From Saccostrea echinata (Eukaryota): a stretch of DNA of 64,000 bases. Under the pieces are notes generated by a model that saw nothing but the letters and a program-made list of their open reading frames with translations, was not told the DNA's origin and ran no database searches. The stretch lies in the NCBI RefSeq assembly GCF_033153115.1, contig NW_026889763.1, positions 13,144,001 through 13,208,000 of the forward strand, given 5' to 3'. Below, piece after piece: positions 18,327 to 61,475 of this stretch. Made by a program: the position numbers and the translations under genes. Position 1 is the first letter of the stretch; each line of letters begins with the position of its first letter.

Positions 18327-19495
18327 TGAATATCAACATCTCAAATATCGCAGAGGAAACCAAGCATGTGTCTGATTTGGCTATTGTTCTCCGCAATAAT
18401 AAAACTCTGGCCCTGATAGGAAAATGGGGAAGTGGGAAGAGAACATTAGCGGTGCAAATAGCCCTAGAAATGGAGAAGGTGTTAAATGATAAATTTAAGT
18501 TTAAAGTTATCCATAATTTTGACGAGACGTGTGGGCCCAGTATTTCCGGATTATCCCAACCAACTGTTATAATACTTCCGGATTTGTATAAATTTTGGAG
18601 AACTGATCAGCACAGTGAAGACGTTATCAACACTTTAATTCGTATCAGATCAATCACCAAGGATAGAAAGTTGTACATTGTAGCTACATTTACAGAAAAC
18701 GCATGGGAATCATTTGCAGAATACTTTCCGAATAAGAATGTTGACGATCTTTTTCCACGAAGAATGAGCATCAATCTATCGCCAAAAACATTGTCGGAAA
18801 TTGGTAGGAAAAATCAAGTTGTTTTGAAGGAGGCAGCAATCAAAGAACTACTTTGCGTAAGAGGTGTTTTGGGAAAGCCTCTTATAACTTTTTTGTTTTG
18901 CAAATATCCGGTTTATAGAAATCCACAATTTTTAAGGTTACCACTGTTTTCCATTTTGTCTGAATTGAGACGCATGAGAAATTCATCTGATGACCGCAAG
19001 AAATTCCGAGTACTGGAATACACCATGTTACATGGTGGAGAGGTAGAGATAGAGAAACTAGAAAATGATATAGATCATCCTTTGTTTGACGTAATAAACA
19101 ATGTTGATGATAGGAAAGCATATATCTCGGATTACATTACACAGCTTCTTAACGGATACATGGAGAAAACGAAAAAATCCTATAGAATTCTACACGATGT
19201 AATCACAAAGTGTGTATTCCTTGTCGCTGCTGAAAGAGAACCAGAAATAATGTTTAAGGAATGTGATTGTTTTCTTTTATTTGATCGTATTCGTCAGAAA
19301 TCCAGGATGGAAAAAATATGGGAGAGAGGCAAATTTTCATGTGATGACAATTCATTGACTATGGGCATTCCAACAGAATCATTTCCAATAGTTGTTAAAG
19401 CTTTCAAGCACAGAAAAGAAATTATGCCGATGCTAAGGAATGTGAAATTGTTTAATGATATAGATTTTCAAAGAGTGTGGAATAAGATTCAATAA
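18327..19495 (+). CDS. Terminal exon of STAND NTPase gene 1 (nSTAND3-like NBD-HD1-WHD-HD2, degenerate catalytic motifs)
   Basis: Intact ~389-codon ORF in AT-rich DNA; ccccttttttgtcag acceptor; Walker A-like LIGKWGSGKRT, Walker B-like VIILPD, GxP-like LGKPL, WHD motif YRILHDVI; AATAAA overlaps the stop. Confidence 0.85.
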
Positions 19496-19691
19496 ACAGG
19501 AATACACTCTTCTCTGCCTATATCGAAACGTTTGAAAAGTTTCTGGATGATTCACTTACTAGCGTATTACGAACTGAAGGGTTGCAGTCCTATCCACAAG
19601 AGCATGTAGACCTGAAATTAATTAGCATTTTCTGTAATCATTTCTTCAATACCATACACTCTCCCAAAGAAAAAAATTATATTTTATCAAC

Positions 19692-21200
19692 ATCCGCCCC
19701 TTACACCCCTTCCGTTCGAAAGCGGGGGGCATACAATGACGGGGTGTCCGTCCTTCCGAAACATGGCTGTCCCTTATCTGCAACTCCTTCTATAGCACTA
19801 AATCAATTAAATGAAGCGTTTACTTAATATTTATCATAGTGACATTGTGCACCTTCTATTATACGTTTCGATCGGACACATACGAGGGTTGTCCGAGAAA
19901 AACGCGAACATTTTAAATATTTTTCGTTTCACATATATTATAAAGTTAAGAACTGGTATGCACCATAATCAAAATTGTTTACATAATTAACAGAAATTTC
20001 AATAAAATATCTCAAGAAATAACATTTCTCTCTCTGATAAATGAATCATTCAAAATAGCTCCCTGCGCAACACAAACGATGTCAAAACGTAGCTTGTGGA
20101 GTTTCTGAATTTGTTTAGGAATCGTGCGATTTAAAAATTCTATCGAAGCAGAAATTCGATACTGCATTTGCTTTTCTTTTAGTTACCAAGTTATCCATTT
20201 CACACGTACTACAACTAAGATTAAATCAGGGAATTAATTCTTTTAAAAGACAATTTTCCAACCCCGATCATAAACTTAACTGCTCGCATAGTTAATGGCA
20301 GTCTCCACGTATGACGTCCAGCTCTAGACTTTTCAGTTTGTCGTCATATTTGTTGATTTACCAAACGCTTCTTCCATCGGATGACAAATCCATCCATCTT
20401 TGAACCCCTTTTACTATGTATAAACCTGTGTTCGATACATGGATTTGTGTTGTTCTTTTGTTCCAGCTATTTTCCCGTATTAACAGGAGTCATACCCTGC
20501 TCCACAAAGTATTGAGTGATAATTTGGTGCGCCGCATTATCGCCCGACGTCGCCATTTTTGACAATATCTAACTCATAGTGTTTGAACATTTAACGTCAT
20601 ATTTTTGTCATTAATGAAGTCAAAATACTATGTTTTATACATACATTACTATAGGTCGTAAAGTTTCTATGAATGTAATTTTTGTCACATTATATTTCCG
20701 TATAACCTTGTAATAAAGAAAACATAGATGGCAATGTTAATTTTAAAAAGTCAAGAAATTGCCGTGCGCCGAACACCGATATTTAACACCCTTTAAATGC
20801 TGATTCTAAATGAGCATGACATTCCATCCTTATATTATTTCTTCAAATTGACGAAAATATCATTTCTCAACATTGTGCCAAAAATGAATAATTTTGGTTG
20901 GGTAGTTTACGAAATATTTAAAAAGTTCGCGTTTTCCTGAGACAAATCTCGTATTTGGGATTTTACAAAGCAAAAAATGACACTGTCATTTTTTTTTTAT
21001 AATATTGGGGGTACATTAGCCCATCTCTTATCTGTAACTCCTCCTATACCACTGAATGAAATGTTGAGACTTTCACAGAATCTCTATTGCACACTGCCAA
21101 CGTGCACCTCCTATTTTACGTTTGGATCGGACAGATATTTGGGAATTCCCACAGCCAATCTACTTTGTCATTATACTCTTGTCGGAGAAGGGTTTTGCTA
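19692..21200 (+). mobile_element. Decayed HINE-like element (gtcc microsatellite, 2 repeat units) interrupted by a mariner-like insertion
   Basis: gtgtccgtccttccg near the start; the unit ttatctgcaactcct...tgcacct.ctatt.tacgttt.gatcggaca recurs at ~19775 and ~21028. Confidence 0.45.
19883..20951. mobile_element. Non-autonomous mariner-like DNA transposon
   Basis: TA|cgagggttgtccgagaaaaacgcgaac...gttcgcgttttcctgagacaaatctcg|TA; imperfect ~40-bp TIRs with TA duplication. Confidence 0.8.
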
Positions 21201-21528
21201 CAGTACCTCTGGTTTAAAACTGTATTGTATGATGACGGTATCTGTGATTTCTAGTAATATGAAGAAAAATTCTTCAAATTCAAGTAAATATTATCATACA
21301 TGTAAAGACTTTAAGATTTATTTTCAGCATATTGATGTCTGTATGAATTAGACTAAAAAGCATGACTGTAGATGAAGTGATTTGTGGTGAGAAATAAAGT
21401 AACGAGGCGTATCTTTGATTTGAATGCATATAAGCGCAGATTATTTGTAACAGCACGAAATTACAAAATGCTGGAAAAGCACAGGCATTTGTTTCTAAGA
21501 TTAATTTTACCACATAATATTTTATAAA

Positions 21529-59990: not shown

Positions 59991-60043
59991 TACATACTAT
60001 GATGTCATGGATTAATTCCTTCACTGTAGATTAGATAAAAAAA

Positions 60044-60100
60044 ATAGATAGATAGATAGATAGATTAGATAGATAGATAGAGAGATAGAGAGATAGATAG
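60044..60100. repeat. (GATA)n microsatellite
   Basis: Direct read. Confidence 0.95.
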
Positions 60101-60249
60101 CACTAGAAAACCAACAATACTGTATATCCTATGTGTCGGATGTATTAGATACAATTAAAGGTAGCAGTCAGTTTTGCATAGTAGATAATCTTCCTTTTGT
60201 GCCATATTGTTTTTTTTTTTTAAAAAGTTAAAAAAAAAATTATTTTCAG

Positions 60250-61475
60250 TGCATGTTAGTTTGGAGAACCTTATTCCATATGGTGATCAGACGATAGCAA
60301 ATATGGCGATTCGTCTTTATCATTCCAAATTAATTGTTTTTTGGGGAGATACTGGAAGTGGTAAATTATCTGTAGCGGCTCAAGTGTTTCATTTCTTCGT
60401 TAAAACATGGAAAAATCCCTTTGAGTGTCATGTTCTTGAGGATATTTTCAATGTGGAACAGTACATGATCAAGGGAAAAAATAATTTATTTCTTATCCGT
60501 GGAGTCATTAAGCGCTGGTATAGACATCAACATGTTTATGCAAAAATTGAAGAAATAAAGAAACTATCTAGCTTGCTTTCATATATGAGTAACGTTTATG
60601 TAATTGTTCTATCTGACTATGTAAGTATCTTTCAATGGAAAACAGAATCTGCTCATGAAGAAAAAATTGGATATTTTCATATCAAATGTACAAAGCCGGA
60701 TTTTTTTTGCAAGCTTTCAAAGCGGTGCATAACTTCTGAGAGCAAGACAGTTGAAATTAGTCAGGAATTCGCAAAGGGAATCATCAACTCGAAATTCAAT
60801 TTTGGTGGACCCGAGATTGCCACTCTGATGCTGAAAAACCAGAATCTTTGGAAGGAAGGATCAACGTTTGTTAAAGCACCATATCATGTCCTGGCCAAAG
60901 ATTTGAAAAGAATGTTAAAATCTTATGAAGAAAGTGAGAGGTCAAAGTTCACGGTTTTGGTCTTCCTACTAACAAACAGCGGTAAAATTGATACAAAATC
61001 TTTTGACAGAGATAAAATGAAAAAGCTTGCCGAGGATTTCCGTTCTTTTACAAATGGATTAGATAAGGTTGACAAAATATGCAAAGAACTGTTGTATGAA
61101 TATCTTGAGCGAGGGGAGGACGAATCATCTTACAGAATCCAACACGAAATTTTACTGAGATGCATTTTTGTTGTTGCAGCAGAGACTGTCTTGCCAAAAC
61201 TGATTGATCTAGCTAGTCCAGAGGTTCTGTTAGATTGTATCAGACCTGACAATAGGAAAATTTTAACAGAAATAAAGTTAATTTCAAAGCTCAAGATAAC
61301 TGACCAACAACATTTGAGTGATATGACTATAAATGTTTCTGTGATTCACTATTGGAAAATATGTAAAAGATTCTTAATGCTTGTAAATGATGGGTTTCCT
61401 AATGTATTGTGGCATAATTTTTTCGACGATAGGGACTTCACAGAGGCCTTTTCTGTTATGCAGACATCAAAATAA
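60250..61475 (+). CDS. Terminal exon of STAND NTPase gene 2 (nSTAND3-like, degenerate catalytic motifs)
   Basis: Intact ~408-codon ORF; ttattttcag acceptor phase 1; VFWGDTGSGKLS, LFLIRG at the Walker B position, FGGPEI, YRIQHEIL; collinear similarity to 18327..19495; AATAAA at ~61588. Confidence 0.85.

Follow-up and report, generated by a model that had tools for sequence, protein, structure and literature searches.

Two likely oyster genes predicted to join a membrane helix to an nSTAND3 core that lacks several catalytic residues

INTRODUCTION

The usual picture of an NLR-type switch is of a soluble protein that works inside the cell and is driven by ATP. Kaur et al. (2021; PMC8195603) described receptor-like Crassostrea proteins with the order TM + Cys-rich + TM + TRADD-N(NCOA6) + (HEPN) + nSTAND3 + ankyrin; these architectures occupy 11 rows, from three C. 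virginica loci, in Figure 4-source data 1; a counter-invader or apoptosis role was proposed for the family. In the accessible portions of that one paper and its supplement, surface-tied oyster nSTAND3 proteins are mentioned only in passing. In the nSTAND3 protein Avs5, K379 and S380 touch the phosphates and D426 binds Mg2+, and either K379A or D426A abolished defence, according to the available text of PMC11897194. P-loop-independent NLRs such as ADR1-L2, NLRC4 and rice Pb1 can activate rather than brake (PMC3478704, as far as its available text goes).

Here we analyzed a 64,000-nt stretch of DNA (the window) containing two STAND exons, ORF1 and ORF2, the terminal exons of gene 1 and gene 2. 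What can be read directly in the sequence is the pair of STAND exons, the changed motifs and, upstream of ORF2, exons for an outer domain and a membrane helix. With a confidence slightly short of even, we propose that the window holds two likely oyster genes for single-pass membrane proteins with an nSTAND3 core that lacks several catalytic residues, their likeliest role being that of a brake on active members of the same receptor family. The receptor-like oyster nSTAND3 protein is already known, and it is the stripped, predicted-inactive form that is new; a form without effector or repeats and with clade-wide catalytic loss was not found in the open-access literature searched.

RESULTS

Two STAND exons are homologous over nearly their whole length

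The + strand carries two long stop-free frames, ORF1 at 18278-19495 (405 codons) and ORF2 at 60189-61475 (428 codons); in 20 base-shuffles of the window, the longest stop-free run was 99-167 codons. The terminal exon of gene 1 (18327..19495) encodes an nSTAND3 NTPase domain, a helical domain, a winged helix and an arm, and that of gene 2 (60250..61475) encodes a divergent nSTAND3 core. A Saccostrea echinata RefSeq protein contains a segment identical to ORF1. As the first-pass annotation of this DNA had described, both exons begin at phase-1 acceptors about 30 codons before Walker A: at 18327 and 60250, a cag/TG junction preceded by a pyrimidine tract leaves 30 and 31 whole codons, respectively. 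The motifs quoted there are found in both ORFs, and the low overall identity was reproduced by BLASTP (24% over 306 columns, E 6e-16). Among the self-BLAST matches listed, there was no nucleotide similarity between the two exons.

The same annotation had aligned the two proteins end to end. The main BLASTP match spans only residues 14-302 of 388, but a profile search supports the fuller claim. A profile built from 14 relatives, without ORF1 or ORF2, matched ORF1 at 371 bits and ORF2 at 160 bits, in both cases along almost the full profile, so the two are homologous from end to end; the C-terminal 96 residues of ORF2 alone matched this independent profile at E 1e-7. The exon design had been described as identical in the pair, but it is not peculiar to them: in a third relative, L001, whose frame is intronless, a phase-1 acceptor likewise precedes Walker A by 30 codons. 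"Tandem pair" fits loosely: the exons lie head to tail on the same strand, but they are 40.8 kb apart and are not sisters (AU p=0.0017). The transposable elements around them had been described as decayed; the long retroelement frames checked, from a DIRS/Ngaro-like element (~3430-7460) and a LINE (~30390-32650), are broken, each element being split over many frames.

The STAND core is recognizable, and its catalytic motifs are degenerate

ORF1 scored 27.4 bits against PF20720 (nSTAND3; cut-off 27.2 bits), and its relatives P0004, P0005, P0006 and P0010 scored 27.8-37.3. ORF2 remained below the cut-off (17.2 bits, E 0.004), and its descent from the family is still shown because of its 160-bit match to the profile of 14 relatives. 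STAND cores led the structural matches to the ORF1 model (pLDDT 92.4): MalT (Z 14.5, model residues 1-388) and NRC2 (Z 14.5), and also a PH0952-type protein (6mfv, Z 13.5) and Avs5 (Z 12.7). In the model, ORF1 forms a complete STAND core (NTPase, helical, winged helix, arm) with no repeats and no effector, and ORF2 is presumed from its sequence to have the same core fold.

Motif columns were assigned from the profile alignment, and the window proteins were excluded from the counts of relatives. In place of GK[ST], Walker A has GKR in ORF1 (18419-18442) and GKL in ORF2 (60345-60368), and neither matches GxxGxGK[ST]. Walker B has PD in ORF1 and RG, with no acidic residue, in ORF2; the sensor-1 Arg is in neither. 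The claim that neither frame has a disabling mutation holds for stops and frameshifts but not for the catalytic motifs, since residues of Walker A, of Walker B and of sensor-1 are replaced in both. GK[ST] was retained in only 1 of the 20 relatives scoring at least 100 bits, among which are near-copies and partial sequences from a single clade and which do not amount to independent events, compared with 89/103 weaker matches and all 59 of the weaker ones with at least 600 residues. At the first Walker B position, an acidic residue occurs in 8/23 close relatives versus 54/56 distant ones, and 5 of 22 versus 47 of 57 carry the sensor-1 Arg. Among close relatives, the P-loop Lys is retained in 16/20 and changed in 4/20, the residue after it is Arg in 17/20, most still have Asp at the second Walker B position, and the winged-helix His is kept in 25/26. 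The conserved arginine could substitute for Mg2+, a point against a brake.

The ORF1-type change is common to Ostrea and many relatives and is therefore old. From these motifs, the core probably cannot run a normal Mg-ATP cycle; because the P-loop Lys and the winged-helix His remain, it may still hold nucleotide and stay closed.

Gene 2 is predicted to encode an outer domain and a membrane helix

The first-pass account of the exons had omitted the upstream membrane-protein half, consisting of a Cys-rich outer domain and a predicted membrane helix. In the window, tblastn matches to the outer domain of O. edulis P0005/P0006 fall at 45509-46680 only, upstream of ORF2. Three + strand exons, each flanked by AG/GT, encode this domain: exon 1 at 45519..45662 (tblastn P0007 E 8e-20, P0005 E 2e-14), exon 2 at 45884..45985 (P0007 E 3e-11), and a 25-nt, phase 1-2 exon at 46640..46664 carrying its last Cys (tblastn E 0.034). 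The next + strand exon, 46881..47047 (AG/GT, phase 2-1), encodes a Ser/Thr-rich stalk and the predicted helix (~46978-47034), which is followed by basic residues and whose hydropathy of 2.96 is the highest among the listed + strand frames of at least 35 residues. The predicted cytoplasmic linker of gene 2 has ~35 residues. Two further phase 1-1 exons are predicted on the + strand, a weak, small linker exon at 50694..50726 (33 nt, AG/GT, open frame), whose similarity to relatives was not significant, and a penultimate exon at 50974..51039 (66 nt), the better-scoring of two candidates in a splice scan of 47048-60249.

The seven exons, six upstream (45519-51039) and ORF2, join in frame through canonical AG/GT sites into 586 residues with a single terminal stop, splicing being predicted throughout, and all eight outer-domain cysteines are kept. 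We are confident that these exons are spliced into one protein. The putative start on the + strand at 44769..44772 (an ATG and one further base, then a phase-1 donor) is one of at least 14 ATG-to-donor candidates and would give an N-terminus without a signal peptide; it was preferred because 9/12 relatives start 5-11 residues before the first Cys-Pro. The outer domain has no Pfam match, and of the TNF-receptor family, chains of CD40 and OX40 came up no better than E ~3-4. Gene 2 is a gene for which no entry was found in the protein collection: there is no ORF2 record at 224-714 residues, and no close relative was found (best identity 23-32%).

The upstream half of gene 1 likely lies outside the window

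The Ostrea edulis proteins P0005 and P0006 share 41-43% identity with ORF1, and in them the order is Cys-rich domain, stalk, membrane helix, linker and nSTAND3. The outer-domain and membrane exons of gene 1 are absent from the window and from the RefSeq model; probably, its 5' half is of the same kind (outer domain, membrane helix) and lies upstream of the window. Five upstream exons of gene 1 were predicted, all on the + strand and phase 1-1: a linker just inside the membrane at 8180..8254 (AG/GT; basic, then Cys-containing), small linkers at 15077..15109 (33 nt, weak; AG/GT, open frame), 15393..15425 (33 nt, strong splice scores) and 17915..17950 (36 nt, weak; AG/GTAAGT), and a penultimate exon at 18096..18173 (78 nt, AG/GT). 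The first was likened to the post-membrane linker of O. edulis P0005 (2/500 shuffles as high; 16/500 against P0006), and the last resembles the pre-STAND linker of P0005 (8/500 shuffles equal it). The three small linkers showed no significant similarity to relatives in the shuffle comparison.

The first exon of the RefSeq model LOC133186506 (17643-17717) lies within a copy of a dispersed repeat (17447..17726, tblastn), of which more copies occur near 21549, 25102 and 59435, and this repeat-borne exon is probably an annotation error. One copy of the repeat contains a tRNA-like match at 25378-25450.

Some relatives share the architecture, and gene 2 may be a chimera

The two genes belong to the nSTAND3 expansion of bivalves, in which HEPN, CARD, caspase and ankyrin domains are found on the long members. 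An outer domain with a membrane helix was found in 9/115 proteins (at least 300 residues and matching the STAND profile), 7 of these 9 having been left out of outer-domain profile building, and in all three ORF1 clade members with an intact long N-terminus (P0005, P0006, P0030). Pfam detected no effector family in the full-length relatives P0005, P0006, P0023, P0044 and P0062 and no DED/TRADD-N module after the membrane helix, where linkers are short and of low complexity. In the window, none of the 39 intervening + strand frames scanned (41 present, at least 60 codons) had a Pfam match, although domains split over small exons could escape such a scan. Both STAND frames end at the arm, and no sensor-repeat family was found in the Pfam scan of ORF1 and ORF2. 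P0044 and P0062 combine outer domain, membrane helix and intact GKT and DD, and P0152 combines outer domain, membrane helix, ankyrins, GKT and Walker B DN; these three are possible active partners, as their motifs suggest. P0007 is without a membrane helix and Walker motifs and may be a mis-joined model.

The gene 2 outer domain is 75% identical to that of P0007 and 60% to that of P0005, and the corresponding STAND identities are 28% and 24%; for the ORF1 STAND they are 66% and 43%. The outer domain of gene 2 looks far younger than its STAND, and this age mismatch hints at module swapping. Grouping ORF2 with those STANDs was rejected (AU p=0.005), the grouping having been chosen after an earlier tree was seen; on the outer-domain side, where the tree is poorly resolved, a swap was not significant (AU p=0.099). 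ORF2 sits at the end of a very long branch (1.7 changes per column), and its placement is unsure. On balance, we marginally favor the view that gene 2 is a chimera from an in-frame module swap, and the phase-1 exon boundaries would permit such a swap of 5' halves and STAND exons.

DISCUSSION

The proposed protein would have a Cys-rich domain outside, one membrane helix, and inside an NLR-type switch predicted not to hydrolyze ATP by the normal route. Its active relatives would combine outer domain, membrane helix and intact nSTAND3, some of them adding ankyrin, HEPN or TRADD-N modules. As a tentative proposal, the outer domain may share a ligand or cluster with these relatives, and the inactive core may enter or block their oligomer, raising the firing threshold. 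An immune role for gene 1 and gene 2 is suggested by family context. The first-pass view of old, fast-diverging, probably immune paralogues under selection fits frames that stay open at 24% identity and the 41-43% identity to O. edulis. More speculatively, oysters might have a modular surface "pseudo-NLR" family, in which a mollusc-specific Cys-rich domain with an undescribed fold replaces sensor repeats, a clade with P-loop Ser/Thr changed to Arg comprises ATPase-dead regulators, and phase-1 exons reattach old STAND tails to new outer domains, giving a paired activating/inhibitory system; we consider this whole picture rather unlikely as it stands.

The same architecture could instead serve an activating scaffold or co-receptor, in which a ligand brings the outer domains together and the inactive core seeds an assembly of cytosolic effector-bearing nSTAND3 proteins. 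Its partners would be HEPN-, CARD- or caspase-nSTAND3-ankyrin proteins, making it a surface sensor for a family-wide network and not half of a pair. Effector-bearing nSTAND3 relatives are common among the matches, and NLRC4 and ADR1-L2 have P-loop-independent adaptor roles (PMC3478704, in its available text). However, a pathogen sensor should vary most outside, and here the outer domain is conserved and the STAND divergent; the sensor-1 and Walker losses would also be expected to impede the open, oligomerizing state. We regard the scaffold reading as rather unlikely.

A non-canonical active NTPase is improbable. Here the Arg after the P-loop Lys would replace Mg2+ or the sensor-1 Arg, and the ORF1 clade would switch on ATP and signal by itself; the conservation of this Arg, the Lys and the second Walker B Asp does imply a role. 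However, ORF2 has Leu at that place and no acidic Walker B residue, the Lys is altered in some relatives, the first Walker B position varies freely, and there is no effector domain for switching on.

We give equally little weight to decaying relics of a birth-and-death family, with one or both genes, ORF2 above all, unexpressed or relaxed and the open frames reflecting young losses. The missing ORF2 record and its long branch would suit such decay, as would a RefSeq model of ORF1 that takes a repeat as its first exon. Nevertheless, the seven gene 2 exons keep splice sites, outer cysteines and an open frame over 16 kb, and the ORF1-type motif change is old while nearby retroelement frames are broken.

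Paired NLRs are often anciently diverged, and their sensor and helper genes are usually close and head-to-head, with an executor domain on one of the two partners. A dedicated sensor/helper pair, as the first-pass annotation had suggested, is very unlikely: the genes share strand, region and family, both frames are intact and their divergence is ancient, but neither has an effector or executor domain or sensor repeats (the 5' half of gene 1 being judged from relatives), both NTPase sites are degenerate, ~25 kb separate the ORF1 stop from the gene 2 candidate start in head-to-tail order, and a populous ORF1 clade beside an ORF2 without close relative makes conserved pairing not evident.

If the brake or co-receptor reading is true, bivalves could tune a large death/defence receptor family, with relevance to the disease resistance of farmed oysters. 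The analysis also names intact/disarmed paralogue pairs and a small outer domain without a structural match so far, and suggests a correction for one RefSeq model (LOC133186506).

The closest described system is the Crassostrea family of Kaur et al., compared here by accessions and architectures (PMC8195603, available portions). Both are from oysters and have a Cys-rich outer region, a membrane helix and a cytoplasmic nSTAND3, with a constant front and a variable back; the Cys-rich region followed by a membrane helix, as in that study, is found in gene 2 exons 45519-47047 and in gene 1 relatives. In contrast, no TRADD-N, DED, HEPN or ankyrin was detected here, there is likely no signal peptide, Walker and sensor-1 motifs are degenerate, and the proteins have ~590-660 residues versus 1,682-2,660. 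Avs5 (PDB 9jap) has the core fold in common with ORF1 (Z 12.7 over residues 1-192), and bivalve HEPN-nSTAND3-ankyrin proteins keep the same winged-helix His. In Avs5 and the long bivalve nSTAND3 proteins, an effector lies at the N-terminus, sensor repeats lie at the C-terminus and the Walker motifs are canonical, whereas the present proteins show no such feature and are predicted to be anchored in the membrane. ADR1-L2, NLRC4/NAIP and rice Pb1 likewise have STAND cores workable without canonical nucleotide handling, and linked paralogues, but they are soluble members of the NB-ARC or NACHT clades, with LRRs and, in most cases, an executor domain (PMC3478704, available text).

Over its whole length, the ORF1 model is most similar to MalT (8bob; Z 14.5, rmsd 4.6 over 288 residues) and resting NRC2 (8rfh; Z 14.5, rmsd 4.0 over 280 residues), a likeness of fold only, with no functional inference at 9-14% identity and with AlphaFold possibly favoring closed states. 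Another analogy is with TNF-receptor-family proteins that have no signal peptide and with partners that act as decoys or inhibitors in death signalling, in which an outer N-terminus lacks a leader and a Cys-rich domain is shared. Searches with the outer domain gave no sequence match to TNF-receptor domains and no significant structural one, and the disabled inner module is a STAND here and a death domain in theirs.

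Two related STAND exons

The two longest stop-free frames of the window, which is AT-rich, laden with repeats and eukaryotic in composition, lie on the forward strand at 18278-19495 and 60189-61475, and in base-shuffled controls (n = 20) the longest stop-free run reached 99-167 codons, far below both. The predicted last exons of gene 1 (ORF1, 18327-19495) and gene 2 (ORF2, 60250-61475) start at a cag/TG acceptor after a pyrimidine tract, in phase 1 in both, and the first-pass annotation was correct in placing this acceptor about 30 codons before Walker A (30 codons in ORF1, 31 in ORF2). 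It had also described an end-to-end alignment at low identity; the two exons are 24% identical over 306 columns (E = 6e-16), and a profile built without them covers each nearly end to end. The terminal-exon design that it regarded as shared is present in both, but the acceptor of a further relative, L001, likewise lies 30 codons ahead of Walker A, so the design is a family trait and not specific to the pair. The feature noticed was real and in part misread.

The Pfam nSTAND3 match was just above the cut-off for ORF1 and below it for ORF2, and residues 27-414 of the Saccostrea echinata gene model LOC133186506 match ORF1 exactly, which identifies the window as oyster DNA. No third STAND copy was found within the window. 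In the PDB, ORF1 had sequence matches at the P-loop level only, a word-index protein search with ORF2 at 224-714 residues gave no match, and the viral contigs searched contained no relative. Metagenome contigs contained one related locus, at 33% identity, which is too distant for dN/dS.

The structural model of ORF1 (pLDDT 92.4, pTM 0.92) best matched STAND cores, namely MalT (Z 14.5 over the whole model) and resting NRC2 (Z 14.5), followed by 6mfv (Z 13.5) and Avs5 (Z 12.7 over residues 1-192); the Foldseek list includes NLRC4, NOD2, NLRP3, SAMD9 and Apaf-1. As modelled, the ORF1 exon encodes an NTPase domain, a helical domain, a winged helix and an arm, and nothing beyond.

Gene models and the outer domain

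Two full-length Ostrea edulis relatives, P0005 and P0006, are 41-43% identical to ORF1. They open with a domain of about 85 residues containing eight cysteines (the outer domain), after which come a Ser/Thr stalk, a single strongly hydrophobic helix, basic residues and a linker of low complexity. Using these proteins in tblastn, the cysteine-rich domain was located at 45509-46680. The predicted gene 2 comprises seven forward-strand exons with canonical AG/GT ends (45519-45662, 45884-45985, 46640-46664, 46881-47047, 50694-50726, 50974-51039 and 60250-61475), which join in frame and give 586 residues with a single terminal stop; the predicted membrane helix lies in the fourth exon.

A hydrophobic leader is absent in 10 of the 12 relatives that have the outer domain, and a candidate gene 2 start at 44769 agrees with these leaderless relatives, so the N-terminus probably lacks a signal peptide and faces outwards. 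A hydrophobic frame at 42752 was considered as a signal peptide and rejected, as its coverage resembles that of a multi-copy repeat and it runs into a stop. The model of the Saccostrea cucullata relative P0007 reads through the donor at 46665-46680, and the residues that follow resemble the translated start of the intron; its 5' half is therefore closely related to gene 2.

In gene 1, ORF1 is preceded by five predicted small exons of phase 1, all in frame with it, at 8180-18173. Two resemble the linker of P0005, with 2 and 8 of 500 shuffles scoring as high, and three have no significant likeness to it. Positions 1-18326 yielded neither an outer-domain exon nor a membrane exon, so the 5' half of gene 1 probably lies further upstream, outside the window. 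The first exon that RefSeq gives for LOC133186506 was rejected and is probably wrong, because it lies in a short dispersed repeat of which the window contains at least four copies (17447-17726, 21549-21901, 25102-25454 and 59325-59626). One of these copies contains a tRNA-like match (25378-25450), so the repeat is probably a tRNA-derived SINE.

The outer domain was modelled from P0005 residues 1-96 with an alignment of 14 rows (pLDDT 89.5). Foldseek gave no match at E ≤ 0.001 in PDB or viral models, the ESM Atlas gave unnamed mollusc clusters only, and VIA gave no Z ≥ 2 among 48,161 chains, although a matchless fold is not thereby new.

Distribution of the layout

Searching 1.84 billion representatives with a profile gave 296 matches at E 0.001, of which 65 reached 1e-10 and 26 reached 1e-30; 150 of the matches were listed. 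The outer domain and membrane helix precede the STAND core in 9 of the 115 profile-matching proteins of at least 300 residues that were examined. P0005, P0006, P0023, P0044 and P0062 end at the STAND core, whereas P0152, and weakly P0073, continue into ankyrins. The remoter matches are cytosolic-type proteins combining HEPN, CARD, DED or caspase domains with nSTAND3, some with ankyrins. A word-index search with the outer domain returned the query itself only, and ESM Atlas look-alikes scoring at least 0.9 were mollusc clusters.

Degeneration of the catalytic site

ORF1 has Arg directly after the P-loop lysine, and ORF2 has Leu there. The Walker B pair is PD in ORF1 and RG in ORF2, and neither protein has the sensor-1 arginine. 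We counted these motifs without the window proteins, taking matches of at least 100 bits as close relatives. GK[ST] occurs in 1 of 20 close relatives versus 89 of 103 weaker matches (59 of 59 among those of at least 600 residues), and Arg follows the lysine in 17 of 20 close relatives. The first Walker B residue is acidic in 8/23 close relatives versus 54/56 weaker matches, and sensor-1 Arg is present in 5/22 versus 47/57; the P-loop lysine is retained in 16/20 and the winged-helix histidine in 25/26. Since the rows include fragments and near-copies of a single clade, the counts reflect an old shared change and not many events.

In Avs5, itself an nSTAND3 protein, ATP and Mg2+ are reported to be bound by the corresponding Lys, Ser and Asp, of which Lys and Asp are required for defence (PMC11897194). 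From their motifs, both oyster proteins appear to be pseudo-NTPases, possibly still holding nucleotide. Among other lineages that combine the outer domain with nSTAND3 and lack repeats, P0044, P0048 and P0062 have intact Walker motifs, and P0023 and P0121 have partly degenerate ones; there may have been more than one loss of catalysis. As P0044 and P0062 are repeat-less receptors with intact motifs, repeat loss and catalysis loss are separate steps.

History of the two genes

In a tree of the best 42 of 97 rows of at least 240 residues, ORF1 falls within a 16-member clade of the Arg type (support 100/99), from which ORF2, on a long branch, is excluded. Later trees and AU tests used hand-picked subsets of 20, 12 and 13 rows. 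ORF1 and ORF2 as sisters were rejected in the 20-row tree (AU p = 0.0017).

The gene 2 outer domain is 75% identical to that of P0007 and 60% to that of P0005, and the STAND parts of these two proteins are 66% and 43% identical to ORF1 versus 28% and 24% to ORF2. The STAND part of P0007 thus resembles ORF1, unlike its gene 2-like 5' half. Grouping ORF2 with the P0007 and P0005 STANDs was rejected (p = 0.005), with the group chosen after the 42-row tree had been seen, and the corresponding test on the short outer-domain alignment was not significant (p = 0.099). These comparisons moderately support a gene 2 in which an old STAND exon received a young 5' half through exon shuffling or gene conversion. 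However, a long-branch error is possible, and the P0007 model may be mis-joined.

Sequencing coverage

No RNA datasets were listed for 60200-61600. Coverage was taken from small shares of four runs of one study, guessed to be RNA. Contigs placed on 42300-62200 cover the 3' half of ORF2 at a mean depth of 1.1-1.4, and the outer-domain exons are barely covered. A 255-base contig of run X1 (61041-61295) does not differ from ORF2, and a contig of run X3 (61040-61271) has 16 differences in 232 bases and may represent a divergent allele or a close gene 2 paralogue. No contig joint among the 15 listed (246 more exist) matches a predicted intron. This coverage speaks neither for nor against expression.

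Repeats and mobile elements

A broken DIRS/Ngaro-like retrotransposon lies inside a predicted gene 1 intron (3431-7462, reverse strand). Its frames, split by stops and frameshifts, comprise a gag-like frame, a reverse transcriptase (Pfam E = 6e-13), a tyrosine recombinase (E = 5e-6), a GDSL/SGNH hydrolase (E = 0.006) and one frame that we take to be RNase H-like. A 168-base unit is repeated in tandem about 7.6 times at 10321-11602 within a longer repeat, reminiscent of the Cg170-type satellite of oysters, which Helentron-like elements carry. A fragmented LINE reverse transcriptase (RVT_1, zf-RVT) at 30394-32650 (reverse strand) includes an assembly gap of Ns (31967-32103), and inverted partial LINE copies lie at 35454-36058. 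Arrays of 10-33-base units are located at repeat ends (51173-51575, 25759-25949 and 28119-28321), a pattern typical of non-autonomous rolling-circle elements.

Proposed roles

Lacking an effector and sensor repeats, and with a site predicted to be dead, the two proteins are unlikely to signal on their own through the standard NLR cycle. The outer domain is the conserved part and would be shared with intact receptors of the family. Because solo signalling is improbable and this domain is both conserved and shared, the likeliest role, proposed tentatively, is that of membrane-tethered brakes on family receptors, which would bind the same ligand or join the same clusters and block growth of the STAND oligomer.

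The main rival is an activating scaffold that would recruit effector-bearing nSTAND3 proteins; it has a precedent in P-loop-independent helper NLRs (PMC3478704), and we consider it a less probable reading. A non-canonical but active NTPase is unlikely beside a brake, and decaying relics are unlikely to the same degree. The dedicated sensor/helper pair of gene 1 and gene 2 suggested in the first-pass annotation is the most doubtful. A complex prediction for ORF1 and ORF2, run without alignments, speaks neither for nor against their association (score 0.06, mark 0.34).

Comparison with known systems

In the literature searched, in part as excerpts, the minimal form with degenerate motifs was not found, and an earlier listing may have been missed; the main text of PMC13093298 does not mention STAND, NLR or NTPase. 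According to Kaur et al. 2021 (PMC8195603), Crassostrea has an expanded set of proteins that combine a cysteine-rich outer region and a membrane helix with DED/TRADD-N and variable tails; 11 of the isoform rows given there, which come from 3 loci, end in nSTAND3 plus ankyrin. As such proteins are listed there, receptor-like nSTAND3 proteins of oysters are already known in outline.
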